Shown: positions 5,570 through 62,890 of the stretch, one piece after another | How the letters are laid out: each line of letters begins with the position of its first letter | How positions within the stretch are numbered: the first letter of the stretch is position 1 | Assembly: GCA_022707425.1 (NCBI GenBank) | Contig: JAKJAQ010000001.1 | Coordinates: 69,089-133,088, forward strand | From: Candidatus Babelota bacterium | Lineage (GTDB): Bacteria > Babelota > Babeliae > Babelales > JACPOV01 | Reading direction: 5' to 3' | Length of the DNA stretch: 64,000 nt | Notes under the pieces: model-generated | What the model was told of the DNA's origin: nothing | Databases searched by the model: none | Seen by the model: only the letters and a program-made list of their open reading frames with translations | Translations under genes and position numbers: made by a program

Positions 5570-5749
5570 ACCAAAAACGAAACGAAATACCTAGACACAG
5601 CATAAATTATTATATTCATTCTGTTTCGCCATAAAACCAACTGTTTAAATAAGGAATGAATAACAAATATAGTTCCCGCGGCATTTAAAATCGTAGCTTT
5701 GACTTAGAAAAAGTGCGCTCGATACAACAACTTTTAAACCGTCGTCCGC

Positions 5750-7828
5750 TTATTTATTTTCTGGAACTTCGATGAAACACTCGACGCGATCGTCAACTTC
5801 CCATGTCTCAATTCCATCGGCTAAAAAAGCAAACTCAAATCCTGCATGAACTTCTTTTACCGATTTACGATCACGCTCAAGCCCTTTAATTTTGCCTTCG
5901 CCTACTTTGCGTTTTCCTCGCCACACAATTACCCGCGCATCGCGCAGAAAACGTCCTTCTTTTACATAAGAACCAGCAATAATTCCAATGTTTTTTATAT
6001 CAAAGATTTTCCGTACAACAGCTTCGCCAATTTTTTTTGCAACCATTTTTACAGGTGCAGATTTTTCAAGTCTTTCTTCTAATGCTTCTAACAGCTTATA
6101 AATAATATCATAAAGATGAATGGTAATAGCGAGTTTTTGAGCTTGGGTTGCTGCATTCGATTCAATTCGTACATGCAATCCAATTATTTCGGCGCCAGTA
6201 TCACTTGCCAAAGTAACATCACTTTCAGAAATATCACCGACTCCTGCAGCAATAAGATTGAAAGGCTGTTCATTTTTATCGGCCAATTTCACCAATGAAT
6301 CAATGAGAGCTTCTTGGGTTAATACACTATCAGTTTTAACAATAATGTTTAAACCTTCTCCACCAAAAACTTTTTTTGGTAAAGTCAGTTGAGATAGCGC
6401 AGAACGAGAATCTCTCGCTTTTCTAAAATCTTGCTCACTAACAACTTTAAAAATATCGCCTGCCTGCGCCAATTCAGCAATTCCAGATACTTGAACTGGA
6501 ATTGAAGGCCCTACCAGTTTTAATTGTTGCCCGCTTGAACTGGTTATAGAGGTCACCTTTCCAGCAACTGTACCGGCAACAAAAAAATCACCCACATGTA
6601 ATGTGCCGTGGCGACAAATAATTGTTGCAACCGGTCCACGACCTTTTTCAATTTTTGATTCCAAAACAAAACCGTCAGCTGCTTGTTGTTCATTAGCGCG
6701 CAAATCCATCATCTGAGATTGCAAGACAATCATTTCCAGCAACTGATCTACACCTTGGCCTGTTTTAGCTGAAATGGGAACAAAAATTGTTTGTCCTCCC
6801 CACTCTTCTGGTACAAGGTCATAACGAGTCAGGTCGCGTTTAACAACTTCCAACCGTTGTTTTTCAACTTTATCTATTTTATTAATCGCAACAATAATAG
6901 GAACTTGTGCAGCTTGAGCTGTCTTAATAGCTTCAACTGTTTGAGGCATGACACTGTCATCAGCTGCTATAACAAGAATTGCTATATCAGCGATGTTAAG
7001 TCCACGTCCGCGAATATTTTTGAACGCTTCATGACCCGGTGTATCTAAAAATACTAAACTACCCTGGGGCGTTTCTGCTTGATAGGCACCTAAGTGTTGA
7101 GTGATACCACCTTTTTCTCGAGAAGCAACTCGTGTTTTTCGAATAAAATCAAGTAGTGTGGTTTTTCCATGATCTACGTGTCCAATAACAACAACTATTG
7201 GCTTGCGCACATGTTCCCCAGTTGTAACTGAGATGCGATGCATTTCTTGTTTTTGAACTTGTTGATGAACTAGGGATACGCCAAATTGTTTAGCGAGTGT
7301 TTCAACCATTTTTTCAGAAAGAGTTTGGTTTTTAGCACAAACAACTCCCTGTCTCAAAAGAGCAAGAATTAATTCACTTGAAGGTTTTCCGAATTTATCT
7401 GCCAATTGCCCAACAGTCATCGGTTGTGTTGTAATTTCAATAACCATTGGTTTTTCTTCTTTGATGATTTCTTTTGGTTGAGTAGATAATTTTATTTCAG
7501 CATGTTCTTTATGCTTCAACTCTGAAACTTCTTCTTTTACTTCTACTTTTTTTGTAGGTTCTACTGGTTTAATTGCTAAATTTTTTTGAGCAGAAATTTT
7601 TTCTGTAGAAGTTGGAACTTGCACTTCGATTTTTTTCTCATTTTTAACAGGTTCAGCTGCTGTTTTTTTTGGAGCTTTTTGTTCTTCTAATTTTTTATTT
7701 AAAAATTCTGTAGCCTCTGACGACAGCGCGGCCATATGACTTTTTACTTCAAATCCATTTTGGGAAAGCAACGTGAGCAAATCTTTATTTGAAACGTCGA
7801 GTAATTTGGCAAATTCATAAACACGCAT
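5750..7828 (-). CDS. infB: Translation initiation factor IF-2
   Basis: G-domain GHVDHGKTTLLD, DTPGHEAF and NKID. The N-terminus MRVYEFAKLL is typical of IF-2. A GAGGAT SD lies upstream, and the gene sits directly downstream of nusA. Confidence 0.95.
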   Translation of the reverse strand: MRVYEFAKLLDVSNKDLLTLLSQNGFEVKSHMAALSSEATEFLNKKLEEQKAPKKTAAEPVKNEKKIEVQVPTSTEKISAQKNLAIKPVEPTKKVEVKEEVSELKHKEHAEIKLSTQPKEIIKEEKPMVIEITTQPMTVGQLADKFGKPSSELILALLRQGVVCAKNQTLSEKMVETLAKQFGVSLVHQQVQKQEMHRISVTTGEHVRKPIVVVIGHVDHGKTTLLDFIRKTRVASREKGGITQHLGAYQAETPQGSLVFLDTPGHEAFKNIRGRGLNIADIAILVIAADDSVMPQTVEAIKTAQAAQVPIIVAINKIDKVEKQRLEVVKRDLTRYDLVPEEWGGQTIFVPISAKTGQGVDQLLEMIVLQSQMMDLRANEQQAADGFVLESKIEKGRGPVATIICRHGTLHVGDFFVAGTVAGKVTSITSSSGQQLKLVGPSIPVQVSGIAELAQAGDIFKVVSEQDFRKARDSRSALSQLTLPKKVFGGEGLNIIVKTDSVLTQEALIDSLVKLADKNEQPFNLIAAGVGDISESDVTLASDTGAEIIGLHVRIESNAATQAQKLAITIHLYDIIYKLLEALEERLEKSAPVKMVAKKIGEAVVRKIFDIKNIGIIAGSYVKEGRFLRDARVIVWRGKRKVGEGKIKGLERDRKSVKEVHAGFEFAFLADGIETWEVDDRVECFIEVPENK

Positions 7829-23181: not shown

Positions 23182-23991
23182 CTAGACAATTCTGTAGTCT
23201 TTAGCGGAATAATTTAATTTTGAGTTTAATTTTGTGAATTGTTTTGTGGACATACTGATAGGTTTTGTTTTTGAATTAGGAATTTCTATTTCATGGCCGT
23301 TAATTTTAAGAAATTCAGCTATTCTTTTTGATTGCGTAGCAAGGCGCAATGTATTTTCAGAAATGTTGGCTCCTCGATGTTCGTAAAGGTATTTAAATGT
23401 AGTGAAGCCACGGATTGTAGTAATAAAATCAGTCAGACACATTTTTTGCCGATTATTTTTATTTTCTACCGTTATTATCACGTTGTTAATATTAAGATTT
23501 GGATAGTTGTTTGAAAGTAGATGTTGTATTTTTGTGGGCAATGTTCCATTTTTTATATATGAAATTGAAATTTTTTTGATATCATTAATGAATAAATCTA
23601 TCTCTTGCATTTCGCGCACTGATTTAATGTGTGTTAAGATTTGTGCAACTGAATCTATGCCATCAGACTCTTTTATTATCTGCGGCAAATTACTCAAAAG
23701 GTCAGCGTATTCTTCATAATTTGACTTGCTTTTTTTTGTAGGTGATTCATTATCATTTTGTTCTTGATTATCAAAGAGACGACGCTTTCCAGATACTTCA
23801 GCATTTCTGATTGGGATTTCTTTTGATTTTTTCCCAGGAGATTTTTGATTTTCCTTTTCCAAAAATACCGGATGTTTTTTGCCTGGTTTATTTCTAATGA
23901 CAAGAATTTCTTCATCAGAATTTTCCATTGCATCAATAATGTGAGATGTAGAAAAAGTAAATAAACATATAATAAAAAATAACTGTTTCAT
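23182..23991 (-). CDS. Exported orphan protein, paralog of 24060-24809 (leader-ME class)
   Basis: Leader MKQLFFIICLFTFSTSHIIDA followed by MEN. Shares SPGKK, a basic GKRRLF block and NGTL...L(N/D)(I/V)NN... with its neighbour. Confidence 0.6.
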   Translation of the reverse strand: MKQLFFIICLFTFSTSHIIDAMENSDEEILVIRNKPGKKHPVFLEKENQKSPGKKSKEIPIRNAEVSGKRRLFDNQEQNDNESPTKKSKSNYEEYADLLSNLPQIIKESDGIDSVAQILTHIKSVREMQEIDLFINDIKKISISYIKNGTLPTKIQHLLSNNYPNLNINNVIITVENKNNRQKMCLTDFITTIRGFTTFKYLYEHRGANISENTLRLATQSKRIAEFLKINGHEIEIPNSKTKPISMSTKQFTKLNSKLNYSAKDYRIV

Positions 23992-24059: not shown

Positions 24060-24809
24060 TTAATCCAGAATGATTTTATTTAGGGTAAAACTAAGGGGCT
24101 TGGATTTTCTTTTACTTTTTTTTCTATGCCCAGTAATATTTGCGATCCTTGAACGGGGACATTGTTTGATGAGTTGTTCTGTTTGGTCTGTCAATTGAGC
24201 ATTATGGTTTGCAATTAAGTGGCTATACAGTGTTTCAGCTTTCATTTTTACTGCAAGATCAATAAGCTTGAACTGCTTTGTTTTTTTATTTGTGTTAATA
24301 ACTATTTCTAATTTAAAATTATTAACATCAAGTGAAGGATGTTTTTTAAGGATGTTTAACATTTCGCGCGCGAGGGTACCATTTGTAGAGTCACTTGGTC
24401 TGCTATAATTTTTAATTTTCTCAAAAAATTCGCGTGCTTCATCTTTTTTTGATGAAGGATTAAGTCCTAAAAGAAGAGTTGCAGCGTCGATTTCATCAGT
24501 TTCTTCTGACTGAACAAAATTAAATGGAGCTTGATCATTGGTGATATCAGAGTTTTGAATATTGAATTCAGCAAATTTTCTTTTGCCTACTCTTGATTGA
24601 TTATATAACGTTGGATTAGGAATCTTTTTTTTACCTGGAGAAAAGGTATTTCCATTTACATCGTCAATAATTTCGTCGCAATACAATGACATTTTTTTTT
24701 CTGGCTCAAGTGTTTCGTCACAATAAAGCGATCGGTTTTCCATTGCATTAACATTTTTGTACTGTGCTAAGCTTGCAATGATCGTGAGTAAAAGAAGTTT
24801 TTTTTTCAT
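24060..24809 (-). CDS. Exported orphan protein, paralog of 23182-23991 (leader-ME class)
   Basis: The ORF-track start at 24815 is a TTG. The ATG at 24809 (MKKKLLLLTIIASLA) has an AAAGG SD. Leader ...KNVNA followed by MEN. SPGKKK and GKRKF blocks. Confidence 0.6.
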   Translation of the reverse strand: MKKKLLLLTIIASLAQYKNVNAMENRSLYCDETLEPEKKMSLYCDEIIDDVNGNTFSPGKKKIPNPTLYNQSRVGKRKFAEFNIQNSDITNDQAPFNFVQSEETDEIDAATLLLGLNPSSKKDEAREFFEKIKNYSRPSDSTNGTLAREMLNILKKHPSLDVNNFKLEIVINTNKKTKQFKLIDLAVKMKAETLYSHLIANHNAQLTDQTEQLIKQCPRSRIANITGHRKKSKRKSKPLSFTLNKIILD

Positions 24810-24918
24810 AACCAACCTTTAGTTGTAATTTTACATATGAATTGAGAACTAAGAATATCGCGGTATTGCGGCAATTTGTCAATTGCTTTTAGAATTCACA
24901 TAGAAAGGAGCATGTATA

Positions 24919-27625: not shown

Positions 27626-28527
27626 ATTGCGCAGTCATTGGTTTAGGGAGAATGGGAAGCGCGATAGTTTATCGTTTACTCAAAGCGGGACATGCAGTTG
27701 TTGGCTACGATCCGAGCGCACAAGCACGGCAAGAAGCTGCAACGGTTGGCGCAACGATTGTTTCAACGTTGGAAGAATGTGCTCATCACGCGCAAATTAT
27801 GTGGCTCATGGTGCCTGCAGGGCCGATTGTCGATCAGGTATTGCGTGAATTGTTACCACATTTAAATGCGGGAGCAGTTGTAATTGACGGAGGAAATAGC
27901 AAATTTAGTGATTCAATCCGTCGCTTTCAAGAATTAAAAAGCGTAGGAATTGAATTTTTAGATTGCGGCACATCTGGCGGTTTGCATGGAAAAGAAATAG
28001 GGTTTTCGTTAATGATTGGCGGCGATATACAAGCGTTTCAAAAAGTTGAGCCTATTTTTACCGCAATTGCAGCCCCTCAAGGATATGGACTTGTTGGGCC
28101 TTCAGGATGCGGGCATTATGTAAAAATGGTCCATAACGGCATTGAATATGCGCTTTTACAATCGTATGCAGAAGGGTTGCAACTACTAAACGAAGGTGAA
28201 TTTAAAGATCTTGATTTGGCCAAAATTACCAATATTTGGCAACACGGATCGATTATTCGCTCATGGATTTTAGAGCTTACCCATGAAATTCTCAAAAAAG
28301 ATCAAAAATTAGAAAAAATTTCAGGCACTATTGCCGAAAGTGGTACCGGTTCATGGACTGTTGAAGAAGCTCACAAACAGAAGGTACCGGTAAAACTGAT
28401 CGAAGATGCTCTTGAAATCCGGGCCTGGTCTCGAGAATCTGGGGGTAATTATGCAACCAAATTGGTAGCATTAATGAGAAACGCATTCGGGGGCCATGCA
28501 TTGGGAATGAAGAACCCACCAAAATAG
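27622..28527 (+). CDS. gnd: 6-phosphogluconate dehydrogenase, short (GndA/YqeC-like) form
   Basis: MNCAVIGLGRMGSAIVYRLLKAGH, and GHYVKMVHNGIEYA. The ATG at 27622 forms an ATGA overlap with the zwf stop, with a GAGGTGG SD. The ORF-track GTG at 27613 is less likely. Confidence 0.8.
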   Translation: MNCAVIGLGRMGSAIVYRLLKAGHAVVGYDPSAQARQEAATVGATIVSTLEECAHHAQIMWLMVPAGPIVDQVLRELLPHLNAGAVVIDGGNSKFSDSIRRFQELKSVGIEFLDCGTSGGLHGKEIGFSLMIGGDIQAFQKVEPIFTAIAAPQGYGLVGPSGCGHYVKMVHNGIEYALLQSYAEGLQLLNEGEFKDLDLAKITNIWQHGSIIRSWILELTHEILKKDQKLEKISGTIAESGTGSWTVEEAHKQKVPVKLIEDALEIRAWSRESGGNYATKLVALMRNAFGGHALGMKNPPK

Positions 28528-28612
28528 TACGTTTTGCGGTCAATTTTTTACAAATTGCGTTTATTTTGATATGCTTATAAAAAGTATATTTTTTATGCTT
28601 AAATTATAATAG

Positions 28613-29893
28613 ATGAGCAAATCGATGGAACCCAAAGTACAAGCATTACCGTTGTTGCCAGGTGTGTATTTGTTTAAAGACAAAGACAATGCCATAATTT
28701 ATGTTGGCAAGGCAAAAGCGCTGCGCAAAAGGGTTTCAAACTATTTTCAAAAACAACATATTGATTGGAAAGTAAAAGCGCTCATTGATGAACATGCAAC
28801 AATTGAGCATGTTGTAACGCATTCAGAGACCGAAGCATTGCTTTTGGAAGCACAACTGATAAGAGAACATCAACCCAAATTTAATGTGCTCCTCAAAACG
28901 GGCCAGCCATTTTTGTATATTCAGGTAACTAATGAAGAATTACCGCGTATGCTTTTAGTGCGTAATAAAAAAGGTAAAGGAACTCACTTTGGCCCCTTTT
29001 TGTTTAAACGTCCTGCGCGCGCTGGTTACGAATATTTAATGAAAACTTTTCGTCTTGAATTGTGCAATCAAAAAATTAAAGATGGTTGTTTAAAATATCA
29101 CATAGGTTTATGTGCTGGTTCATGTCGCGACGAATTTGATAAAGATAACTATATGTTGCGATTAGATTTAGCTATGAATGCATTGCGCGGCAACTACAAA
29201 GAATCGTTGTATCAATTAAGAAAATCAATTGCATTCTGTGCAGCGCGTTTTGAATTTGAAAAAGCGCAGCGACTTGTTACCTATTTACAAAACCTTGATA
29301 ATATTTTTGCAACATTGAAAGTGAAATTTTCTGAAAAAAAATACGAAAAAGAAGTTTCGCTTGCAACTGCTCCCGTAAAATTTTCACGCTCACCAAATAA
29401 AGATTTGGGATTTCAATTGCAGCATCTATTGCAACTACCACATGCGCCATCTTCAATTGATTGTTTTGATATTTCGCATTTTCAAAGCAGTGAAATTGTT
29501 GGTTCATGTGTTCGTTTTGTTGATGGTGTTCCGGATAAAAATAATTTTAGACGATTTGCGATAAAAACATTGCAACAGCAAAATGATTATGCTGCGCTTC
29601 AAGAAATTGTTGCGCGTCGTTACCGAAACATTGAAGACATGCCCGATTTAATTTTGATTGATGGTGGTAAAGGTCAACTCAGTTCAGTATCTGCATTATT
29701 TCCTGGAGTGCACATTGTAAGTTTGGCAAAGCGAGAAGAACGGTTGTTTAGTCAAAATTATCCGAACGGAATTGTGCTTGATCTACAAACAGAAGTTGGC
29801 AGACTATTAATAGCATTGCGAGATTATGCGCATCATTTTGCAATTTCATATCATCGCAAAAAAAGAGCAAAAAGATTGGAAGGTGCATTATGA
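28613..29893 (+). CDS. uvrC: Excinuclease ABC subunit C, short form lacking the C-terminal (HhH)2 domain
   Basis: GIY-YIG (GVYLFKDKDNAIIYVGKAKALRKRVSNYF), a UVR-like helix (FEFEKAQRLVTYLQNL), a 5'-endonuclease motif (CFDISHFQSSEIVGSCV) and RDYAHHFAISYHRKKR. It ends at 426 aa in an ATGA overlap with clpB. Confidence 0.8.
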   Translation: MSKSMEPKVQALPLLPGVYLFKDKDNAIIYVGKAKALRKRVSNYFQKQHIDWKVKALIDEHATIEHVVTHSETEALLLEAQLIREHQPKFNVLLKTGQPFLYIQVTNEELPRMLLVRNKKGKGTHFGPFLFKRPARAGYEYLMKTFRLELCNQKIKDGCLKYHIGLCAGSCRDEFDKDNYMLRLDLAMNALRGNYKESLYQLRKSIAFCAARFEFEKAQRLVTYLQNLDNIFATLKVKFSEKKYEKEVSLATAPVKFSRSPNKDLGFQLQHLLQLPHAPSSIDCFDISHFQSSEIVGSCVRFVDGVPDKNNFRRFAIKTLQQQNDYAALQEIVARRYRNIEDMPDLILIDGGKGQLSSVSALFPGVHIVSLAKREERLFSQNYPNGIVLDLQTEVGRLLIALRDYAHHFAISYHRKKRAKRLEGAL

Positions 29894-32451
29894 ATTTAGA
29901 ACAATTTACTCATGCTTCAAGTGAACTGTTACAACGAAGCGTCACGCTTGCACAATCGGAAAAAAATCCAACATTACTCCCGTTGCACACGGTGGCAGCA
30001 GGAATAGAAGATGAATTTTGCATTTCAGTTTTTAATGCGCTTGCCTTGCCACTCGATCAATTACGACTTATGGTTACCGAGCAATTAAGTAAATTGCCTC
30101 GTGTTGAAGGTGGAAAATTAAGCACCGATTATTCATTTGACACCTTTACACAAGAATTAAAAAAAGAAGCAGATTCGCTTGGAGATGCCTATATTAGCGT
30201 TGAACATTTTTTGCTGTGTTGGTCTAAAACGACTCAACTACCTCAACAATTACAACAATTTTTTAAACAACATGGATTTGCTTACGATCGCATTTTGACT
30301 CACATCAAAACACTGCGCAAAGGAAGAACTGTTCAAGAAAAAAATGCTGAAAAACAATATCAATTGCTGGAAAAATATTGCCAAAACATTACACAAATGG
30401 CAAAGCAAGGAAAACTTGATCCAGTTATTGGTAGGCACGAAGAAATTCGTCGTGTGATTCAAATTTTATCGCGACGAACCAAAAATAATCCAGTCTTAAT
30501 TGGTGAGCCTGGAGTAGGCAAAACTGCAATTGTTGAAGGTATCGCGCAACGTATTATTAATAATGATGTTCCCGAAGGATTGCGAAATAAACAAATTTAC
30601 GCGCTCGATTTAGGTTTGTTGATTGCCGGTGCAAAATATCAAGGTGAGTTTGAAGAACGTCTCAAAGGTATTTTGAAGCAAATCGAAGAAAGTGGTGATA
30701 ATATCATTTTATTCATTGATGAACTTCACATGCTTGTTGGCGCTGGCGCAACTGGCGGTGGTATGGATGCATCAAATTTACTCAAACCTGCACTTGCGCG
30801 CGGATTGTTGCATTGTATTGGCGCGACCACTATTAAAGAATATAAAAAATATATAGAAAAAGATGCAGCACTTGAACGTCGTTTTCAAAAAGTGCTTGTT
30901 GAAGAACCTTCAGTAGAAGATGCAATCTCAATTTTACGCGGTCTGAAAGAACGATACGAATTGCATCATGGAATTCATATCAAAGACCAAGCGCTCGTCG
31001 ATGCTGTCGTTCTTGCAGATAAAAATATTCCTGATCGTTTTTTACCCGATAAAGCAATCGATTTGATCGACGAAGCTGCGGCAATGGTGCGCATGTCGAT
31101 TGACTCGTATCCACCAGAAATTGATCAATTGGAGCGTAAAATTCGTCAGCTTGAGATTGAAAAAGTTGCATTACAAAAAGAAAAAGAAGATCATGCACAA
31201 AAACGGTTAGCCATTCTGCAAAAAGAACTTGCTGATTATAAAGAAAAGCGTCAAGCACTTGAAAGTCAGTGGCAAGCAGAAAAAAAACCGCTTGAAGCAA
31301 TCAGTAAAGTGAAAGAAAAAATTGAGCAAGCTAATTATGAATTTGCCCAAGCTGAGCGCGAAGGTGATTATGCAAAAGCATCTGAAATTAAATACGGAAA
31401 AATTTCGAAATTAGAAAAAGAATTAGTTGCTGAACAAGAAAAACTTAAAAAACTTAAAACGCATTTAATCAAAGAAGACGTTGATGAGCGTGATGTAGCT
31501 GCAGTTATGTCTCGTTGGACAGGAATTCCTGTTGAAAAACTACAAACAACCGAAACACAAAAACTGTTACGCATGGAAGATACGCTCAAAATGCATGTTA
31601 TTGGTCAAGATGAAGCAATTTCAGCAGTTGCGCACGCCATTCAGGTTCATCGTGCAGGACTTACCGATCCGCGCAAACCAATTGGTTCATTTTTGTTTTT
31701 AGGGCCAACTGGTGTTGGTAAAACTGAAGTTGCAAAAACGTTAGCTGATTTTCTTTTTAATAATCCAAACAGATTAATCAGAATTGATATGTCTGAATAT
31801 ATGGAAAAACATGCAGTTGCGCGTTTAATTGGAGCGCCACCAGGATATGTTGGATTTGAAGAAGGTGGACAATTAACTGAACAAGTGCGCCAGCATCCGT
31901 ACAGTGTTGTGTTGTTTGATGAAATTGAAAAAGCGCATCCCGATGTGTTTAATATTTTTCTACAAATTTTAGATGAAGGGCATTTGACCGATAGTCAAGG
32001 AAGAACCGTTTCATTTAAAAATTGTATCATTATCATGACATCAAATATTGGTGCCGATTTAATCTTGCAAGCAAAAGATTTGACACCACAGGTAAAAGAA
32101 TCGATCGAGCAATTATTGCACAAAACATTCAGACCTGAATTTCTCAATCGTATTGATTCCGTTGTATTCTTTAAAATGTTAACACAAGAAGATGTCCAGA
32201 AAATTGCACTGTTGCAACTTAATGACATTGAAAAACGGTTAGCAGAAAAAAATATTACCGTCACTATTGATGATGATGTTGTCAAAGAAATTGCCCAACG
32301 CGGTTATGTGAAAGAATTTGGTGCACGACCATTAAAGCGTGCAATTCAACAATACATCACAGTTCCATTATCCCAATATATGTTGAAACATCCAGATGTA
32401 CAAAAAGTTAAAATTACAATGAAGAATAACGAAATCATGATCGGAAGATAG
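29890..32451 (+). CDS. clpB: Disaggregase chaperone ClpB
   Basis: Two AAA+ modules ([13 protein letters not shown] and GPTGVGKTE) are separated by a long coiled-coil M-domain. An N-domain is present. Confidence 0.95.
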
Positions 32452-32563
32452 AATTTTCTGCTTGTTGAATCGATTTGTAATTTTTATTTTAATTTCTTTC
32501 AAAAAAATTAAACTTATCTTCTGCGTATTTTTATTACCTTTTTTCTAATGGAAGTATCCGAAG

Positions 32564-33949
32564 ATGGTCTGGCCGATAAATAGTGTACTCGTTTTGTTTT
32601 TGGTTTCATCAACTATATTGCGATCAATGGAGCAATCTGAACATTGTACCATTCCTGAGTTTAAGAAGGATGTAATACTTAATCTTAATAATCAACCGAT
32701 TAAGCTTGTACAATTTCAGGGCAACAATCTTTTGAGGTTAATGTTTCGTGAAAATGATTATCATTGTACTTTTTTTATTCATCGTGATCGCGAAAATAAA
32801 CTTTATTTGAATCCAATTATTCCCGAAAATGAATCGCTTGAGCAAATGAATCTGGATTATAGTTTACTTGATGCGATTGAAAGAGGTGATATTGATACCT
32901 GTCGCCAGCTAAAAAATGAAGCAAATTTTTCTGTTTTAGATGCGCGCCTTAAGTTTATATCTCCATTCAATATCATACGGCGAAGCGATCAAAAAATTTG
33001 TTCCTCTGAAGATATTGTGGCTGGTGAAGCATTTACGTTACAGATCAGTCAAAAACCAGCAGTTTATTGTTGGCCTTATGCAGATTCTTCTAATTTTTCT
33101 ATTATTCAGCAGTTAGAGCGTAATTATAATTATCATATTTTGAGAGAACTTATGTGTGATGAGAAGTTATATACATTTGAAATGAATCAAACGAAGTTGC
33201 TTGAAATCACTGGTTTCTTGAAAGTAGTACAAGCTGAGGAAAAAGAGTTGCCGTTTATGCAGGCGCTCATTCGTCTTTTAACCGATGAAAAAAGTTTAGA
33301 TCAATTATGCATTTGTCGCCTTGGCAAACTCTATGCAAAAATTATTGCACAGCAAGACTCGAAAGGTAAGCAGCTTATTTCTCAAATCCATGATTGGAAA
33401 AAATATCAAATTTTAAGAGGCCATATATTGCACTCGCTCAGTGAAATGGTCCGTATGCAACCTTACCAAGAAGCTCAATTAATTCCATCTAACTTCGTTG
33501 AATTATCAAAGCGCATTATGCAAGATGAGCTATTTTTAGAGTCGGTCAAAAGCAAAGAATTTTTTTCAAATGTGCTTTCATATAGCAAACTGTATGGTGT
33601 AGATGGGCAACATAAAGAATGGAGTGCGATATATTATCACATGCTTGCGCTTCTGTTAAAAAATGAAGAGGGTAAAATTTTTTTAAAAGAACTGTGCAAT
33701 AACAAAAATAATGAAAATCTTTTTAGTTCAACGATAAAACCGTTTATGCAAAACGCATTGTTTCGCAAGTTCGTAGTTCGGCAGCTTGTGTGCGCAAACC
33801 CACCGTTGAATGAACATGTTGCGCCACTTGTTTCTGAGCACTGGCAACCGGATGAAAAATTTATAAATTATTTTAAAGCATTAAAAATAAGCAAACGGAT
33901 GGCAAATAAGATTATTGAAATTGAAACAAAGAAGTTTAAAAAGCAATAA
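32564..33949 (+). CDS. Exported orphan protein (leader-ME class)
   Basis: Leader MVWPINSVLVLFLVSSTILRS followed by MEQ. The 461-aa ORF has no recognisable motif and lies directly upstream of the RING protein. Confidence 0.55.
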   Translation: MVWPINSVLVLFLVSSTILRSMEQSEHCTIPEFKKDVILNLNNQPIKLVQFQGNNLLRLMFRENDYHCTFFIHRDRENKLYLNPIIPENESLEQMNLDYSLLDAIERGDIDTCRQLKNEANFSVLDARLKFISPFNIIRRSDQKICSSEDIVAGEAFTLQISQKPAVYCWPYADSSNFSIIQQLERNYNYHILRELMCDEKLYTFEMNQTKLLEITGFLKVVQAEEKELPFMQALIRLLTDEKSLDQLCICRLGKLYAKIIAQQDSKGKQLISQIHDWKKYQILRGHILHSLSEMVRMQPYQEAQLIPSNFVELSKRIMQDELFLESVKSKEFFSNVLSYSKLYGVDGQHKEWSAIYYHMLALLLKNEEGKIFLKELCNNKNNENLFSSTIKPFMQNALFRKFVVRQLVCANPPLNEHVAPLVSEHWQPDEKFINYFKALKISKRMANKIIEIETKKFKKQ

Positions 33950-34006
33950 TATAAGTGCGAAAAATGATATATTTTAGTTATGTATAACTTTAATAAGGAG
34001 TTTTTT

Positions 34007-35017
34007 GTGAACAATAGATTGCCTATTTTTAGATTGATGTGTTTGCTGCTTTGTGCCAGCACGGTTGTTTTTGCAGATAATAATTCATGGGAATCATTTT
34101 GGGAAATGTTTTGGGGCCCAAAAATTAATTATTCGGCAGTTCAATTTGATGTGCAGGATGAATTAGATCGCTTATTTTTTAATAAATTAGAATTTATATC
34201 GCCCGAAATGCAAAACGTACGTTTTCAAATGAGTAAAAATATTGTTGAATTAATTAAATCATCTAATCTTGATTCCCAAGTGCAAGCAAAAGAACAGGCG
34301 GTTGCAGCGGTAAAGCCGGCGATAAAGCAATTTGTTGTTGATCTTGGAACGAAAAAAATTGTACAAGAAATTGGTTCATATTATCATGGCCGACCTCCGT
34401 ACAATCCTGAACAATTTGAACAGCGAATAAAACAGGAATTGGCACAACAAATTGATGATGCATTTCGTAAAAATAAAAATGTTACACAGCTGTTGAGCAT
34501 GAGTAAGCTTAAGGAAATTATTGAACAATACGATAATCAATATGCTCTTCAAGCTGGCGGTGTTTATCACAAATTAGATAAAGAATTGCCACAACTCTAT
34601 GCGGGTCAAACAGTTGCAGGAGAGGATGTGCCAGCGGGAGCACCGGTGGATAATGTACATGAACTTTATCCACAATTTAATGATAAAACCGCTGAAGGAC
34701 TGGAGCGTAATAAGAAATTTTATGGTCCATTTTTTGAAAAAGTAAAACAATTCCGCGCAGAAGAATGTCCAATTTGCAGCGAAAATTTTGATGCGCATTG
34801 TGCACGCGTAAATTTATATTGCGGACATTCATTATGTGCAACATGTTTAGCAGGACATGTGCATATTAATGATAAAAATCAATGTCCAACATGCAGACAA
34901 GAAGTGCGCGCATCAGAATTTCCGGTAAATTATTTACGCGATTTCATCAACCGGGAAGATCTCAAACAACAATTTCCCAGGATGCATGATAAAATACGCA
35001 GATTATTTAGGTTTTAA
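34007..35017 (+). CDS. Exported protein with a C-terminal eukaryote-type C3HC4 RING finger (putative E3 ubiquitin-ligase mimic)
   Basis: CPICSENFDAHCARVNLYCGHSLCATCLAGHVHINDKNQCPTCRQ gives C-x2-C-x14-C-x-H-x2-C-x2-C-x12-C-x2-C (nt 34766-34894). Hydrophobic leader. The GTG at 34007 lies 6 nt after AAGGAG; the ORF-track ATG at 33980 is the alternative. Confidence 0.75.
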   Translation: MNNRLPIFRLMCLLLCASTVVFADNNSWESFWEMFWGPKINYSAVQFDVQDELDRLFFNKLEFISPEMQNVRFQMSKNIVELIKSSNLDSQVQAKEQAVAAVKPAIKQFVVDLGTKKIVQEIGSYYHGRPPYNPEQFEQRIKQELAQQIDDAFRKNKNVTQLLSMSKLKEIIEQYDNQYALQAGGVYHKLDKELPQLYAGQTVAGEDVPAGAPVDNVHELYPQFNDKTAEGLERNKKFYGPFFEKVKQFRAEECPICSENFDAHCARVNLYCGHSLCATCLAGHVHINDKNQCPTCRQEVRASEFPVNYLRDFINREDLKQQFPRMHDKIRRLFRF

Positions 35018-35030
35018 TCAACTAATCAAT

Positions 35031-35070
35031 AATACCGCTTCTTTCATGCTTGAGGAGCGGTATTTTCTTG
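35031..35070 (+). terminator. Probable intrinsic terminator after the RING gene
   Basis: AATACCGCT (35031-35039) pairs with AGCGGTATT (35056-35064) and is followed by TTCTTG. The loop is long (16 nt). Confidence 0.45.
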
Positions 35071-35149
35071 AAAAATTGGCTTTTTTGCCGATTAATCCCT
35101 TGTTTTTATAGAGGTAAAACTGCTAACGTAAAAACAAAGAGGAGAAGGC

Positions 35150-35374
35150 ATGAAATTCATTAAAAGATGGATGAACCCGGACGAAAACCCAAAAAAAATC
35201 GAACATAATATGAGCATTAAGCAGCATGTTTCAACACGTATTTCTCACATTCGTCGCAAAATGAGCCGAGGGGCTTCAGATATTTATCGTATGATGAAAG
35301 TTCACGCCAAATGGGGAAACAAACAACTCTGGGGCTTCCGAGAAAAAGGCCGCAATCGCCACAAGCCAGAATAA
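35150..35374 (+). CDS. Small, highly basic hypothetical protein (74 aa)
   Basis: Strong SD AGAGGAGAAGG before the ATG. Lys/Arg/His-rich sequence with no recognisable family. Confidence 0.45.
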   Translation: MKFIKRWMNPDENPKKIEHNMSIKQHVSTRISHIRRKMSRGASDIYRMMKVHAKWGNKQLWGFREKGRNRHKPE

Positions 35375-35407
35375 TTTATTAAAAAGAATTCCTTAAAAAG
35401 TTATAAA

Positions 35408-36475
35408 TTATTGAGGCATACTATAGTTGATGTGTTCAAGATCTTCAATCCAGGCGGTTACTAAAGCTATTTCTGCTGGTTTAAAATATTGCTTAATTAT
35501 TAATTCGTTCATGAGTTCTTCCATCCGTTCAACAAATACCTTTTTTTCGCATTTCCAATTACGCAATGTGTTAATGAGTTGCTCAGATTTTAAATATACA
35601 TCAATTTCGTCCGCAAAATCGGTGAGTAAATTGTGTTCATTGCGATATTGAACTGCTGTTGGTGCAAGAAAACAGACCGATCCGTCAAAATCCCAGAGGA
35701 GCCGCTGCATCCAATAACTTCTCCAAATGTCACAGACGCGAAAACTTGGAGTAACTGGCAAAAGTAATGCCCAGAATGCGTTGTAATAAAAAATAGTATT
35801 TTGTGAATTAAATGGGCAGAGAACGCCGCGTTGTAAACTAAGCGGCTTCTTATTCGAATCAAAATTAATTTCTTGACTGTGTGTCAAACGATAAATTGCA
35901 TCAACATCAGGATCATTATTCACGACACCTTGCTGAATAGGACAATGAACGTGCCGTTCAACTGTTTGATACTGTTGGTTATGTATAATTTTTTTAAGTG
36001 GATACCCGCGTGGCCATACGTTTGGTTGTCCAAAATGTTCATAAGGATTAACCGTTGATTGATCAGTGATGTATTGAATTGTGGTTGCATGTTCAGGTAG
36101 ATAGCCAATTTCATTATCTATTAAATAATTGTCGTCATCGGTTTCATAAATGATTCGTGCTCCGTGTTCAATTGCATAAAGATAGCCAATATTTTTTCGC
36201 GAATAATGATTCCATGGTAGAAACTGAATAATTTTGTAGGGCAACTGTTGTTGTTTTTCTACGCTCAAAAATTCACAATTATCTAAATGCCAATCGCATG
36301 GCGTTTTTTTATCAGCCACTACTACCAAATGCCAATCGGGAAGTTGCGCAAGCTGCTTAAGTGCCGCAGTTGGATAATTAATGGTAGTAACAACAATCCA
36401 TTTATCAGTCGCATTAATTTTGATGCATGAAATAAATAAAAAAAAGTATGCAATGCGTTGCAAAATTGTGCTCAT
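35408..36475 (-). CDS. STELLO/DUF288-like glycosyltransferase (eukaryote-type), signal-anchored
   Basis: WIVVTTINYPT...WHLVVVADKKTPCDW, RKNIGYLYAIEHGARIIYETDDDNY, VNPYEHFGQPNVWPRGYPL and QQGVVNNDPDVDAIYRLT. These match, from memory, the plant and Dictyostelium STELLO family. The start overlaps the stop of the upstream gene by 1 nt. Confidence 0.65.
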   Translation of the reverse strand: MSTILQRIAYFFLFISCIKINATDKWIVVTTINYPTAALKQLAQLPDWHLVVVADKKTPCDWHLDNCEFLSVEKQQQLPYKIIQFLPWNHYSRKNIGYLYAIEHGARIIYETDDDNYLIDNEIGYLPEHATTIQYITDQSTVNPYEHFGQPNVWPRGYPLKKIIHNQQYQTVERHVHCPIQQGVVNNDPDVDAIYRLTHSQEINFDSNKKPLSLQRGVLCPFNSQNTIFYYNAFWALLLPVTPSFRVCDIWRSYWMQRLLWDFDGSVCFLAPTAVQYRNEHNLLTDFADEIDVYLKSEQLINTLRNWKCEKKVFVERMEELMNELIIKQYFKPAEIALVTAWIEDLEHINYSMPQ

Positions 36476-37311
36476 TATTTATCCTTTTTTTGGCTTAAAA
36501 ATATTTCTCGAATAACGTGTTGATTTTCCAAGCTTGAAAGTTTGATGGGATGATGAAAATAATTTTTCATTTTAAAAGTTTTGCATGGGTTATTTCTTTC
36601 CGTGCCTTCACCTTTAAGCCAGAGCCATTGAGTTTTTGGTTCTAGACATGCAGCAATGGTTGGAACAGCGATTTCTAAAAAAAGTTCATGTGAATGAAAT
36701 AAAACAGCAAGCTCAATAAACTGAGTTCGTAAACGTGCAGGAATATAAATAAGATCTGAATAGGCAGCAACGACATTTCCTTCGCCCCAATTTTGGGCAA
36801 GTTGATTTTTATAAGATTGGGGTAAATTATTGAAAGCGTTCAATGCTGCAGGGTAACCCCATTTTGTTAACCAAATGCTCCATGAAGAATAGGCCTTAAA
36901 ACCAGAGTTTAATTGAATCGGGGTGCCACGGGTTGAGGTGAATGAATGAATATCTGAATACCAAATTCTGTTGGTATCGAGCGGTTCTAAGAGCCATGCA
37001 TTAAGTATGCAATCATCCATTAAAAAAAAGTAACCATTTTTTTCAGGATTTTTTTCCATTGCGTCGGCAATGGTTATGTAACTCAAAAATCCTTCATGGT
37101 GTTTGCAGCAAGTAACATCGAGGTGTTCTTCGGGACCATAAAAAACAATATCGCTAAAATAGGGCGCATAGAGTTCTTTAAGAAACGGAATAGAATCATA
37201 ATACGCATGATTATAGTTTATGATTAATAATGTATTTTCAAATTGTGCCGCGTTAATGAAAGCGCCGAGAAGCGAAATAAAAAAAAATGCACATGCTTTG
37301 ACATAGTTCAT
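36475..37311 (-). CDS. Signal-anchored orphan protein, family A copy 1 (paralog of 38827-39684); possibly a glycan-related enzyme
   Basis: LLIINYNHAYYDSIPFLKELYAPYF..VFYGPEEH...ADAMEKNPEKNGYFFLMDDCILNAWLL aligns along its whole length with 38827-39684. Translationally coupled to the STELLO-like gene. Confidence 0.6.
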   Translation of the reverse strand: MNYVKACAFFFISLLGAFINAAQFENTLLIINYNHAYYDSIPFLKELYAPYFSDIVFYGPEEHLDVTCCKHHEGFLSYITIADAMEKNPEKNGYFFLMDDCILNAWLLEPLDTNRIWYSDIHSFTSTRGTPIQLNSGFKAYSSWSIWLTKWGYPAALNAFNNLPQSYKNQLAQNWGEGNVVAAYSDLIYIPARLRTQFIELAVLFHSHELFLEIAVPTIAACLEPKTQWLWLKGEGTERNNPCKTFKMKNYFHHPIKLSSLENQHVIREIFLSQKKDK

Positions 37312-38826: not shown

Positions 38827-39684
38827 TTATTGTTTGTGTTGTTCAAAATAATTTTCTATGAACGTGCGATTTTCTTCATATGAAAGCTTTATTGGATGAT
38901 TAAAATGTAAATGTTCACTAAAATATTCTTGTGATTGCGCAGTTCCAGGATAAAAGGTACCCGTACCTTGTAACCAAAACCAATTATTTTTTGAAGTGAG
39001 ACAACTCAAGATTGTTGGCAGCGCTGTTTCCAGAAAAGCTTTTCTTTTTGCGAAAATAAGTGCCAATTTTATAAACGTATCCTTGTACATTGCAGGAATG
39101 TATGCAAGATCAGAAAATGATGCTGGTACTGTATTTTTGCCCCAATTTTTTTCTAATATTTTTTTTTGTTCGCGTGGTAATTTTTTGAAAGCACTTTTCA
39201 TTGGCTCATATCCCCATTCAGATTGCCACCATGCCCAATGAGTAATTGCTTTTTTGCCTAATTTAATTTTTATTGGTGTGCCACGGTTATTGATTTGTTT
39301 TCCATCATTTTGAATGATAAAGGGAATATCACCAAACCATATTTTTTTTGTATCGATACCGGTCAATAACCAAGGATTCAAAATACAATCATCCATTAGA
39401 AAGAGATATCCTTCAAAATGTGGATAACGCTCCATGGCATCAGCAATTGCGGTGTAACTAAAATATCCTTTATGATGATTACATACATGTATTTCTGGGT
39501 GCTCTTTTGGCCCATAGAAAACAACTTTTCCAAAATAGGGTGTATATATTTTCTTGAGTAAATCAATTGATTCGTAATGTGCATGATTATAATTAATAAT
39601 GAGAAGAATGTTTTTAAAATCGGTTGAAAAAATTGATCCACAGGTAAATAAAAAAATGAAACTTACTATTTGCATGAACTTCAT
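38827..39684 (-). CDS. Signal-anchored orphan protein, family A copy 2
   Basis: LLIINYNHAHYESIDLLKKIYTPYF..VFYGPKEH...ADAMERYPHFEGYLFLMDDCILNPWLL, a paralog of 36475-37311. AGAGGG SD. Confidence 0.6.
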   Translation of the reverse strand: MKFMQIVSFIFLFTCGSIFSTDFKNILLIINYNHAHYESIDLLKKIYTPYFGKVVFYGPKEHPEIHVCNHHKGYFSYTAIADAMERYPHFEGYLFLMDDCILNPWLLTGIDTKKIWFGDIPFIIQNDGKQINNRGTPIKIKLGKKAITHWAWWQSEWGYEPMKSAFKKLPREQKKILEKNWGKNTVPASFSDLAYIPAMYKDTFIKLALIFAKRKAFLETALPTILSCLTSKNNWFWLQGTGTFYPGTAQSQEYFSEHLHFNHPIKLSYEENRTFIENYFEQHKQ

Positions 39685-52986: not shown

Positions 52987-53068
52987 TTATTTTTGTTTTT
53001 TTCAATTTGTTCTTCTTGCGACTCTAAATGAAGTATCTTAAAAGATGGGATATATAAGGGGGAATCGT

Positions 53069-54196
53069 ATGAATAATAGTAAACATATTGTTTGGATGTA
53101 TATTTTTTTAGTTTTTATTTTATCGCAAAAACATGTTTTTTGTATGGAACAGGAACATGATTCTGATGAAAATAAACGAAAAAAAGAAAAATTAATTACA
53201 GAGCAAAGACAAAAATTATTAAAAAAGCATGCTTCTTCACCTTCATTGAATGGTGATCCATTTAAATATATACAAGAAAATAATTATGAAAAATTAAAAG
53301 GGTTAGCTGTTTTAGATCCATCGCTTAGAAAATTTAATAAAGATGGTGAATCAACTTCTTTGTTGCTGGCTGCCATTATCAATGTAAAAAAACAAAGAAA
53401 AAAACAATCTACCGTGGCACGAGCAATTCTCGGCTTGATGCTTAAATGTCCAAACATAAATGAACAAATATTGAATGAAGCGCTCGATTACGCAAAAATC
53501 CAGGTGAATCTGAGTAAAGACGAAAAAACTAAGGCAACAATGAACGATGTTGTTTTTGCCTTAAACAGTGTTATTTCACTTTCTGCGATGAAAAAAACGG
53601 CTGAAAAAAAAATTAAAGAATTCAAAGAAGATCCCAAATCATTTGATGATTACAAAAAGCTCATTCAGGCAGAGCAAAATGTTGACAATAATAATAATGA
53701 AAATGTGCCGCGCAAAAGATCTGAAAGTGTGGTAAAAAAAATGAAAGAAGAAACAAACAAAGATAAGGAGAAATTTTTTAAATTTCTCCAAGATGGCCCG
53801 CCGATTGCTCAACAAAAAAAAGAAAAGAAAAACATAAAAAAAAGAGAGAAACAAGACCAAATCGTGCTGAATCAAGCAGAACATCGAAAAAATATATTTG
53901 ACCGACTCAGACTTCCATGGGGTAATTCAAACGAAAAAAAACTGGAAATGATAACTAAGCAATTACAGAATCAAAAAATAACATCGACTTTAAAGCACGA
54001 AAATGCGCCACCACCGGCCAATAGTATTATTTCATCAAGTTCTTTTTCGAATAGCAATCCTAATTTAACTATCGGTCTAAGTCATAGTGCTGATGAAAGT
54101 CCTAAAAGTTCAAGCTTGGAAAAATATTACGGTCAACCAGGAATAAAACAACCGAAAAAAAAGTTTGATCCTGATAACAATAATAATAATCAGTAA
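53069..54196 (+). CDS. Exported Lys/Glu/Asn-rich orphan protein (leader-ME class)
   Basis: The ATG at 53069 follows AAGGGGGA. Leader MNNSKHIVWMYIFLVFILSQKHVFC followed by MEQ. Low-complexity basic blocks (KKEKKNIKKREK) and a poly-Asn tail. Confidence 0.55.
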   Translation: MNNSKHIVWMYIFLVFILSQKHVFCMEQEHDSDENKRKKEKLITEQRQKLLKKHASSPSLNGDPFKYIQENNYEKLKGLAVLDPSLRKFNKDGESTSLLLAAIINVKKQRKKQSTVARAILGLMLKCPNINEQILNEALDYAKIQVNLSKDEKTKATMNDVVFALNSVISLSAMKKTAEKKIKEFKEDPKSFDDYKKLIQAEQNVDNNNNENVPRKRSESVVKKMKEETNKDKEKFFKFLQDGPPIAQQKKEKKNIKKREKQDQIVLNQAEHRKNIFDRLRLPWGNSNEKKLEMITKQLQNQKITSTLKHENAPPPANSIISSSSFSNSNPNLTIGLSHSADESPKSSSLEKYYGQPGIKQPKKKFDPDNNNNNQ

Positions 54197-61615: not shown

Positions 61616-62890
61616 TCAACCATTAGTTAATAGATACCAAAAGCAATCTAGGATTGAAAATTTACTCGCAGGTCTTTCATGCTCAACTAAAAACTTTTCG
61701 TTAAAATACGTGCGGTATGCTTCGGGCAATTGTTCAAAATCCTCTTTTTGTTGTCTTTCTTGCTGTTGATCTAAAGCCCATAATAGAATTTTTTTGTGAT
61801 TGGTTGTTTTGAATTGTTCATTTAAGAATTTGATATTTTCATCTGATAGATTTTCGAATAAATTTTTCATAAAAACGAAAATATGACTAAAATGCCAAAT
61901 ATCGATGCCGCCGTTTGATGATAATGATGCAAAAATTGGAGAATTTCTTTGAAGATCAAAAGAACGAATAAAATTATGTTGAGGTTCCAAAACTGAAACA
62001 ATTGCACTTTTTTCTGGCTTAATTAGGTAAATCTTACCCTCTGAAAGAGCGGTGAGTATATTATGTGTGTCACTCCAGCGCAAATTAGTTGGTTTTTTCA
62101 GTTTTATTTCAGTTTCATTATCGCTAACATCAAAAGTTTTATATTTTTTGATTGATACATTATTATTTTCCTCTGCAACATAAGCTAATATTGTGCCTGG
62201 GCCATTAGAAGTGATATGCCCAATGGTTTTTTGATCATCATTAATAATATTTTCTTGGTGCATAGAGTCATAAAGGGCGAAAATACCGTTATTTTTTGTT
62301 CCAATGAGTAAATGGTTGTCATTCCAGTATAATGAGGTAGGTAATGCATTTACTTGGTGTACAGCTATTTCATTTATCCTGTTTTTAGGATAAACACGGA
62401 CCTGATTTATTTCATTCATGATGAGAGCAAATTTTTCCCCTGAAGGGTGCCAACTTATTCCAGCTACTGTTTTAGGAAGTTCCAATAGATGTGAAACTTT
62501 TAATAAATCATGAGCATTTTCAGATTGCCAAAGTTTTATTTCCTTACCCCCAACCGTGATGAGATTGTTTTCCGTAGGGCTATAGGAAAGAAATGAAATT
62601 GGAGATGGATGGTTGTAATGAGACTCATCAAAGTTTACCGATTTTTCTGCAAAGTTTAATTCTGCTTTTGTAAAATCATATGTTTTTTCTTGAGGAATGA
62701 TTTGGGTTCCATTGTGATTTATACCTATATTGAATTCATCAATATGGGAATAATCACAAAATAGAGGTTGTGGGCTTACCGTTGCTATAATGTTCTGTTT
62801 TGCTTGTTCTGTTAATTGTTCTGATTCTTTTTCCATCGATTGTACATTAAAAAATAGGCTTAACAGAGCAATAAAAAATATATAATTCAT
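61616..62890 (-). CDS. Exported WD40/beta-propeller repeat protein (leader-ME class)
   Basis: Leader MNYIFFIALLSLFFNVQS followed by MEK. Repeats include LSYSPTENNLITVGGKEIKLWQ, ISWHPSGEKFALIM and FASLSSNGGIDIWH. AAGGAA SD. 4 nt upstream of murI. Confidence 0.65.
   Translation of the reverse strand: MNYIFFIALLSLFFNVQSMEKESEQLTEQAKQNIIATVSPQPLFCDYSHIDEFNIGINHNGTQIIPQEKTYDFTKAELNFAEKSVNFDESHYNHPSPISFLSYSPTENNLITVGGKEIKLWQSENAHDLLKVSHLLELPKTVAGISWHPSGEKFALIMNEINQVRVYPKNRINEIAVHQVNALPTSLYWNDNHLLIGTKNNGIFALYDSMHQENIINDDQKTIGHITSNGPGTILAYVAEENNNVSIKKYKTFDVSDNETEIKLKKPTNLRWSDTHNILTALSEGKIYLIKPEKSAIVSVLEPQHNFIRSFDLQRNSPIFASLSSNGGIDIWHFSHIFVFMKNLFENLSDENIKFLNEQFKTTNHKKILLWALDQQQERQQKEDFEQLPEAYRTYFNEKFLVEHERPASKFSILDCFWYLLTNG

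Follow-up and report, generated by a model that had tools for sequence, protein, structure and literature searches.

To our knowledge, the bacterial mimics of RING-type E3 ubiquitin ligases that have been characterized experimentally mostly have zinc-free, U-box-like folds and reach the host through injection systems. NleG, LubX and AvrPtoB exemplify this type: their folds are of the U-box type and lack the eight zinc ligands, and non-cleaved signals direct their injection by type III or type IV secretion systems. The U-box-type fold of NleG has been described (PMC2891834), and RING/U-box proteins of amoeba-associated bacteria have already been published, namely the NEX1b proteins of Neochlamydia (PMC4209131) and, in 2015, a RING finger protein of Babela massiliensis (Dependentiae) considered a potential E3 and proposed, along with leader-bearing C19 (ubiquitin C-terminal hydrolase, UCH) deubiquitinases, to be secreted with its own leader into the amoeba (PMC4378268). 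Protists are the hosts of the Dependentiae (TM6), obligate intracellular parasites whose putative effectors carry Sec signal peptides (PMC6561590, PMC4776705, PMC4378268). Here we analyzed 64 kb (64,000 nucleotides, the window) of contig JAKJAQ010000001.1 from a Candidatus Babelota bacterium, in which a gene on the plus strand (34007-35017, the RING gene) encodes a protein with a C-terminal RING finger (the RING protein). We favor, with some reserve, the reading that the product of this gene is a RING-type E3 ubiquitin ligase that a Dependentiae bacterium exports through Sec and directs at its host.

The finger, encoded at 34766-34894 on the plus strand, translates to CPICSENFDAHCARVNLYCGHSLCATCLAGHVHINDKNQCPTC (residues 254-296), with the ligand spacing C-x2-C-x14-C-x-H-x2-C-x2-C-x12-C-x2-C, and by its sequence is a genuine eukaryote-type RING-HC finger. 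When the stop-free segments of all six frames of the window were scanned with a regular expression for RING-HC/H2 spacing (C-x2-C-x9-39-C-x1-3-H-x2-3-C-x2-C-x4-48-C-x2-C), this was the single match, and 100 mononucleotide shuffles of the window gave none. Among Pfam models, zf-RING_2 (PF13639) scored 28.7 bits against a curated cut-off of 27.3 and zf-C3HC4 (PF00097) scored 23.9 bits against 21, and the single protein sequence matched RNF4 in the PDB at about 1e-5. Translation, pattern and Pfam thus bear out the C3HC4 RING that a preliminary description of this DNA had read from its spacing, both of the Pfam models named there for checking (zf-C3HC4 and zf-RING_2) lying above their curated cut-offs. 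An extra cysteine in the segment AHCARV is replaced by Arg in the three closest homologs and mostly by Gly across the family, and is therefore not a zinc ligand.

The open reading frame (ORF) extends over 33980-35017 on the plus strand and yields 345 residues from its ATG or 336 from a GTG at 34007. The GTG is the more likely start, because it lies 6 nt after AAGGAG and the 336 residues match the length of GenBank OQA36400.1; homologs also align from this position. The same description had placed the RING at the C-terminus of a protein of about 337 residues with a hydrophobic leader, directly downstream of another leader-bearing orphan at 32564-33949, and this account holds at 336 residues from the GTG. 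The features of the locus are as follows.

32564-33949, plus strand: leader-bearing orphan of 461 residues, the upstream neighbor; inserted between clpB and the RING gene in certain lineages only.
33995-34000, plus strand: Shine-Dalgarno-like AAGGAG, 6 nt before the GTG, read from the sequence.
34007-35017, plus strand: coding sequence of the RING protein, 336 residues from the GTG, stop codon included (ORF list, OQA36400.1 and homolog alignment).
34007-34075, plus strand: signal-peptide-like leader, residues 1-23, MNNRLPIFRLMCLLLCASTVVFA, with a basic n-region, a hydrophobic core and a V-F-A motif.
34076-34120, plus strand: Trp/Phe-rich stretch after the leader, DNNSWESFWEMFWGP (family alignment A4).
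34124-34552, plus strand: predicted all-helical N-terminal domain (N-domain), residues 40-182, with the RPPYNP / NPPINP motif (AlphaFold2, AF2, model).
34556-34648, plus strand: variable, probably disordered linker, residues 184-214 (predicted local distance difference test, pLDDT, <50; gapped and length-variable in A4).
34661-34750, plus strand: E-[IL]-Y-P ... R-N motif and predicted pre-RING helix, residues 219-248 (family conservation; helix at 229-248 in the model).
34766-34894, plus strand: RING-HC (C3HC4), residues 254-296 (Pfam, regular expression, PDB profile match and family alignment).
34895-34897, plus strand: Arg297 at the "linchpin" position (Arg in 24/25 family clusters; aligns with CPTCR of RNF4).
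34898-35014, plus strand: conserved C-terminal tail, residues 298-336, with I300, E304-F305 and Y309-L310, then three short predicted helices (conservation; pLDDT 94-97).
35031-35070, plus strand: intrinsic-terminator-like hairpin with a 13-bp stem and a U-rich tail, 14 nt past the stop codon of the RING gene.

Word-indexed homolog searches returned three matches with the full protein, three with the RING region and six with an alignment of the RING. The family emerged when 1.84 billion cluster representatives were searched exhaustively with a HMMER profile, which gave 2000 matches at E <= 0.001; among the matches listed, most consisted of the RING portion only and about 25 sequence clusters matched the RING protein along its whole length. 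One family member is annotated as originating from a Candidatus Babeliales genome. The common architecture runs from a leader through a Trp/Phe-rich stretch (SWESFWEMFW, FWEWLFSL, NWFTNICGW, FWNWFQDP and others), a helical domain with the motif (N/R)PP(I/Y)NP and a variable linker, Pro-rich ("SAPP") in many relatives, to the E-[IL]-Y-P ... R-N motif, the RING and a tail with the motif I-x3-EF-x3-YL. Pfam recognizes zf-RING_2 in 25/25 members, the RING being the sole Pfam domain, and the N-domain had no Pfam match in the RING protein or its family. One member of 438 residues (P0014) carries two tandem copies of the E-x-Y-P, RING and tail module.

Conservation was counted over the 25 family clusters of alignment A4. 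Zinc ligands C254, C272, H274, C277, C293 and C296 are invariant, C257 is kept in 24/25 and C280 in 23/25, with Asp in two members. The E2-contact positions are retained to a similar degree, with Ile or Val at position 256 (I256 here) in 23 clusters and P294 in all 25, as is the linchpin position, R297 (Arg in 24). We take these three positions to be those that touch the E2 and prime the thioester in solved RING-E2~ubiquitin complexes (c-Cbl, RNF4), Arg297 presumably matching the linchpin residue of active RING E3s, Arg181 of RNF4. Conservation extends to both sides of the finger, to E219 (23/25), Y221 and P222 (22/25 each) of the E-[IL]-Y-P motif and to the I (21/25), E/D (23/25), F (20/25) and L (22/25) of the tail. 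Compared with the PDB, the family profile matched RNF4 (4e-10) and TRIM32 (2e-10) as well as TRIM21, TRIM5, RNF8, AMFR, TRIM25 and BRCA1, with matches confined to the RING columns.

Between four close lineages, which are saturated, dN/dS (ratio of non-synonymous to synonymous divergence) was 0.05-0.17 in the RING plus tail and 0.14-0.28 in the N-domain. Purifying selection acts on both parts, more strongly on the RING. These values bear on the possibility that the RING is an inactive or decaying relic of an old acquisition, kept as a structural appendage of the N-domain, for which some members of the family could be cited. The sixth zinc ligand is changed from Cys to Asp in P0028 and P0034 and the second from Cys to Met in P0033, one relative has a paralog consisting of the N-domain only (described below), and in one population, represented by five Logan runs (L003-L007), an in-frame TAA (L003 6371-6373) replaces CAA (Gln) five codons before the first RING cysteine, splitting the gene calls into a 251-residue N-domain protein and an 81-residue ORF that starts inside CPVC. 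This TAA would reflect either a recent truncation or loss or stop-codon read-through; the RING past it is intact and conserved, which argues for a recent mutation. Since constraint within the protein is strongest in the RING and tail, and the ligands and functional residues are kept in 23-25 of the 25 clusters, we regard a relic as distinctly improbable.

Prok-RING families are linked to operons of bacterial ubiquitin-like conjugation (E1/E2/JAB), which are cytoplasmic systems. The statement in the preliminary description that bacteria lack the ubiquitin pathway was oversimplified in that Pfam holds such prokaryotic RING families, Prok-RING_4 among them, although the RING protein does not fit these. 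Its Prok-RING_4 (PF14447) score of 14.3 bits falls far under the cut-off of 27, whereas the eukaryote-type RING models score above theirs. This weak similarity, which recurs at E <= 0.01 in 11 of the 25 family members (best 6.2e-6), would be the argument for an E3 of a bacterial ubiquitin-like conjugation system acting on bacterial or phage targets. We consider such a system highly improbable here. No E1, E2, JAB or ubiquitin-like gene was found among the window ORFs of at least 150 residues or in the gene tables of eight related loci, and the RING protein appears from its leader to be exported, whereas those systems reside in the cytoplasm.

A first AF2 run on 6 sequences left the RING at pLDDT <50, and the 25-sequence family alignment was used instead, raising the mean pLDDT of the model to 83.6. 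In this model the N-domain (about residues 40-182) is predicted as an all-helical bundle with pLDDT mostly of 92-97, and of 77-86 around residues 121-140 and past residue 160. The RING and tail reach 89-98, with a helix (229-248) ahead of the finger and three short helices behind it. The best Foldseek match in the PDB was the RING of TRAF5/TRAF6 (probability 0.99, E = 0.29), and the best matches in the viral library BFVD were RINGs of white spot syndrome virus (WSSV), Mimiviridae, Tupanvirus and Marseilleviridae, the Mimiviridae RING fitting the model with a root-mean-square deviation of 2.0 A over 52 columns. The N-domain had neither a sequence match in the PDB nor a significant Foldseek match in the PDB or BFVD and, as modeled, would constitute a structurally new helical fold family with no annotation and no known relative.

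Synteny was checked gene by gene in nine independent lineages (the window, L002, L003, L008, L012, L014, L015, L016 and L017). In 9/9 the RING gene lies just downstream of uvrC-clpB and on the same strand, at 82 nt from the clpB stop codon in L016 and 50 nt in L017. In the four closest lineages the spacer between clpB and the RING gene holds the 461-residue orphan (two copies in L008); it holds a 163-residue ORF in L015, a 123-residue minus-strand ORF in L012 and nothing in L016 and L017. In L014 it holds the N-domain-only paralog (5309-5989, plus strand; hhalign probability 97%, E = 6.5e-11), which has the leader, a WLDWFF stretch, the helical domain and a SAPP...LYPDL motif and is devoid of the RING. 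On the other side, of the five lineages that are more distant, four have tpiA after the RING gene, either directly or with one or two ORFs inserted, three of the lineages with tpiA also having secG-mlaE-mlaF and two having moxR and a type II secretion system (T2SS) C gene, T2SS-C. A scan of metagenome contigs with family alignment A5 gave no relatives.

The RING gene is thus a positional ortholog inherited vertically from the common ancestor of the nine lineages, and for this reason the RING must have been acquired long ago. The recent acquisition from a host implied by the preliminary description does not agree with this shared position or with the ordinary base composition, the GC content around the RING gene being 0.36, equal to that of the rest of the window. 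Recent horizontal transfer of the gene was likewise rejected on its conserved synteny and normal GC. The eukaryotic flavor of the domain, and nothing else, would suggest that eukaryotic contamination or a chimeric assembly put the gene on a bacterial contig, and to this we give practically no credence. Independent NCBI, JGI, ENA and Logan contigs have this gene at the corresponding position, which already refutes the idea, and the gene itself is preceded by a bacterial ribosome-binding site, begins with a bacterial-type leader and is followed by a terminator hairpin, with a base composition equal to that of its surroundings and bacterial flanking genes. The hairpin was revealed by folding (35015-35080, -20.9 kcal/mol, z = -4.7 against shuffles); a consensus terminator scan gave no call there, and Rfam had no matches in 32400-35450.

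The locus also contains other genes of the ubiquitin system in some relatives. Between uvrC and clpB, L015 has a leader-bearing UCH (PF00443; 1699-2766, plus strand) and L016 another protein with a leader, whose C-terminal RING-like finger lacks the His ligand (2326-3210, minus strand), and the uvrC-clpB locus seems to collect ubiquitin-system genes.

Across the lineages, identity to the window is 69-97% for ClpB and 28-61% for the RING protein. Between the window and L002, dS and dN were 0.15 and 0.010 for uvrC, 0.30 and 0.016 for clpB, 1.08 and 0.092 for asnB, and 1.7 and 0.28 for the RING gene, so that the RING protein evolves about 3 times faster than AsnB at non-synonymous sites. The contrast in amino-acid identity (ClpB 97% against 61% for the RING protein) was considered as a signal of an arms race and set aside as not clean, uvrC-clpB having a dS of 0.15-0.30 against about 1 elsewhere; its sharpness is largely due to the anomalous similarity of the uvrC-clpB block. 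The 6PGD-uvrC-clpB block of the window (27769-32405) has 94% nucleotide identity to L002 at this low dS, and from 32564 on identity is 70-81% and dS 0.9-1.7, with a sharp break at the 3' end of clpB, which suggests either that lineages recently exchanged the uvrC-clpB block by recombination or that the metagenome contig is chimeric. The L008 record (CAZUJC010000004.1) is labeled "uncultured Pseudomonadota bacterium", probably wrongly, since its ClpB is 94.6% identical to that of the window and the uvrC-clpB-orphan-RING arrangement is common to both.

The RING protein begins with what looks like a Sec signal peptide, in which V-F-A stands ahead of the likely cleavage point and DNN follows it. 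Leaders were judged from their composition; a comparable hydrophobic leader is present in 22 of the 23 full-length family members. The Trp/Phe-rich stretch that follows may serve as a membrane-active, membrane-association or sorting element. No type III, IV or VI delivery genes were seen among the annotations of the 64-kb window. Published accounts of the phylum describe export through Sec, by type II secretion and in vesicles, and not type III/IV injection: TM6 genomes have a T2SS in common, and in Chromulinavorax, where 44% of proteins bear signal peptides, putative effectors are thought to exit through Sec and vesicles (PMC6561590, PMC4776705).

A Sec-type leader as the sole visible targeting signal would also suit a protein that stays in the envelope, in the periplasm or on a host-facing outer surface, with the finger acting as a zinc- or disulfide-stabilized interaction module that has no ligase activity. 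The core-gene-like position by clpB, tpiA, secG, mlaEF and the T2SS-C gene in nine lineages, the paralog made of the N-domain alone and the natural truncation ahead of the RING in one population are all in keeping with such a module. It offers, however, no obvious reason, outside E2~ubiquitin binding, for the conservation of the E2-contact Ile/Val and Pro and of the linchpin Arg. The closest sequence relatives of the finger are active eukaryotic E3 RINGs, no ubiquitin, E1 or E2 gene was found in the window or in the fetched loci, and relatives have a leader-bearing UCH deubiquitinase at the same locus. On balance we find an envelope role rather unlikely.

A host-directed, Sec-exported E3 ligase is thus the reading we prefer. 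Of its elements, the sequences show the RING and the conservation of its ligands and E2-contact positions throughout the family, the presence of a leader, the action of purifying selection, the assignment to the phylum and the constancy of the genomic position. The effector of the host ubiquitin system put forward in the preliminary description keeps its footing in the eukaryote-type RING, the leader, the lifestyle of the Dependentiae, the conserved E2-contact and linchpin residues, and the UCH and second RING-like gene of relatives, and its remaining steps, namely secretion past the periplasm, entry into the cytosol and E3 activity, are ones that we infer. In such a sequence of events the leader would take the RING protein across the inner membrane and be cleaved after VFA, and the protein, released through type II secretion or with outer-membrane vesicles, would arrive in the protist cytosol. 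There the RING would fold around two zinc ions and bind host E2~ubiquitin through Ile/Val256, Pro294 and Arg297 to act as a ligase, while the novel helical N-domain might pick the substrate or position the ligase on a host structure.

Several observations weigh against this reading. By itself a Sec leader takes its protein to the periplasm only, where an oxidizing milieu would disfavor a zinc site with seven cysteines. The Foldseek E-values for the RING (0.14-0.9) are non-significant, and the cross-brace arrangement of the zinc ligands is presumed. The position equivalent to Trp408 of c-Cbl is His in the RING protein and variable across the family. The paralog in L014 implies that the N-domain can act without the RING, and in the L003-L007 population either the RING is dispensable or the population is decaying. 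The RING gene, moreover, behaves as a vertical core gene among uvrC, clpB, tpiA, secG and mlaEF, which is unusual for effectors.

A bolder version can also be entertained, although we find it somewhat doubtful as a whole. The RING protein may be the founding example of a family of true zinc-binding RING-HC ligases present in many related Dependentiae, with a RING that an ancestor of these parasites acquired once from a eukaryote or giant virus and that has been kept by clpB ever since. Its members would be exported through Sec followed by type II secretion or vesicles and not injected, and would use the new helical domain and Trp/Phe stretch for host targeting or membrane crossing.

The upstream neighbor (32564-33949, plus strand) has the same sequence as OQA36401.1, a protein from Candidatus Dependentiae bacterium ADurb.Bin331, which places the window in that bin or a near-identical genome. 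The suggestion that it acts as a co-effector or partner of the RING protein found no support. It is present only in the four closest lineages, as a tandem pair in L008 (6956-8386 and 8522-9934), and is about 30% identical between genomes in which ClpB is 95-97% identical. In L012, L014, L015, L016 and L017 it is not at the locus, where the RING gene follows clpB closely or other ORFs intervene, and a profile comparison of the orphan with the RING family gave no similarity. Five homologs of the orphan share an invariant M-E-Q. In many exported orphans, Met-Glu-[Gln/Asn/Lys/Glu/Asp] comes right behind a hydrophobic leader, with polar or acidic residues next (...RS/MEQSE, ...DA/MENSDEE, ...NA/MENRS, ...FC/MEQEHD, ...QS/MEKESEQ, ...CA/MENTF, ...LP/MEEH and ...PA/MEDP, a slash separating leader and motif). 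In the window this ME motif occurs in the orphan itself and in 23182-23991 (minus strand), 24060-24815 (minus), 53045-54196 (plus) and 61616-62890 (minus), and in relatives in L012 7086-8234 (minus) and L016 7010-8851 and 8854-10311. Judged from these sequences, it may be a post-signal-peptide sorting motif common to the phylum. The RING protein does not have it.

The remainder of the window is clearly bacterial and contains housekeeping genes (IF-2, NusA, ribonucleotide reductase, PGI, G6PD, 6PGD, UvrC, ClpB, EF-P and NusB), a glycan-biosynthesis cluster and many ORFs with hydrophobic leaders. Just past the RING gene, a small basic ORF of 74 residues (35150-35374, plus strand; ...HIRRKMSRGA.DIYRMMKVHAKWGNKQLWGFREKGRNRHKPE) recurs in L002 (7382-7600), L003 (6792-6995) and L014 (7070-7285). 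With 83% identity to L002 and a dN/dS of 0.13 it is much better conserved than its neighbors, and neither Pfam nor Rfam matches it. Three paralogous leader- or anchor-bearing proteins that resemble the STELLO family (PF03385) are also encoded immediately downstream of the RING gene, on the minus strand (35408-36475, 36475-37311 and 38827-39684), one with a clear score (76 bits) and two slightly under the cut-off; the best-known members of this glycosyltransferase family are plant Golgi proteins. Two neighboring genes (61616-62890 and 62898-63908, both minus strand) encode WD40 beta-propeller proteins, the first of which bears a leader and the ME motif noted above; by their sequence both are candidate eukaryote-like host-interaction proteins. 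A 1230-residue ORF at 289-3981 (plus strand) had no Pfam match; ORFs of similar size (1433-1444 residues) lie upstream of uvrC in L012 and L017.

Among described systems, the finger comes closest to those of eukaryotic RNF4, TRIM32, TRIM21 and RNF8, with which it shares the C3HC4 spacing, the CP[IV]C, CGH and CPxCR signatures and the equivalent of RNF4 Arg181. In our model, helices are predicted to flank the RING core as in RINGs that dimerize. Unlike RNF4, the TRIM proteins and RNF8, the RING protein is encoded by a bacterial gene and has a cleavable-looking Sec leader and an N-domain without detectable relative. It has no SUMO-interaction motifs, B-box, coiled coil or FHA domain and, lacking these accessory modules, is neither an RNF4 nor a TRIM protein. 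The RINGs of giant viruses (Mimiviridae, Marseilleviridae and Tupanvirus), the top structural matches in the viral library, operate in the same setting, inside protists; the match is limited to the RING core with a non-significant E-value, the N-domain shows no similarity, and there is no evidence of direct transfer. Prok-RING_4 and its relatives are also bacterial treble-clef RINGs, from which the RING protein differs in its sub-threshold score, the absence of E1/E2/JAB neighbors and its export, the last as read from its leader.

Babela massiliensis provides the nearest precedent, with the same phylum, the same lifestyle and the same idea. Its RING protein is known here from one published sentence, and that paper gives no family, architecture, synteny or residue analysis of it (PMC4378268). 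The family definition, the novel N-domain and the fixed clpB-adjacent position appear to be undescribed, the searchable literature giving no account of any of them. Conserved in position in nine lineages, the RING gene offers a tractable entry to the manipulation of protists by Dependentiae, a subject on which there is next to no experimental work; at about 313 residues the mature protein is small, and it is confidently predicted, so that in vitro ubiquitination assays and pull-downs from amoeba lysates are feasible.

NleG (E. coli), LubX, GobX and RavN (Legionella), AvrPtoB (Pseudomonas) and NEX1b (Neochlamydia) are bacterial mimics of the E2-binding module of eukaryotic E3s that exploit host ubiquitination, as the RING protein would be on our reading. 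The RING protein departs from the NleG, LubX and AvrPtoB type in having the full set of zinc ligands and a Sec-type leader and in that its gene is syntenic and conserved, not accessory; with its Cys/His ligands present and conserved, it is not a U-box. If the bolder version is true, hijacking of host ubiquitin would be an ancestral and indispensable trait of this lineage instead of an accessory one. The pairing of a complete, canonical RING-HC finger with a Sec leader in a bacterial protein would represent a second route, next to injected U-box-like effectors, by which intracellular bacteria use the E2s of their hosts.

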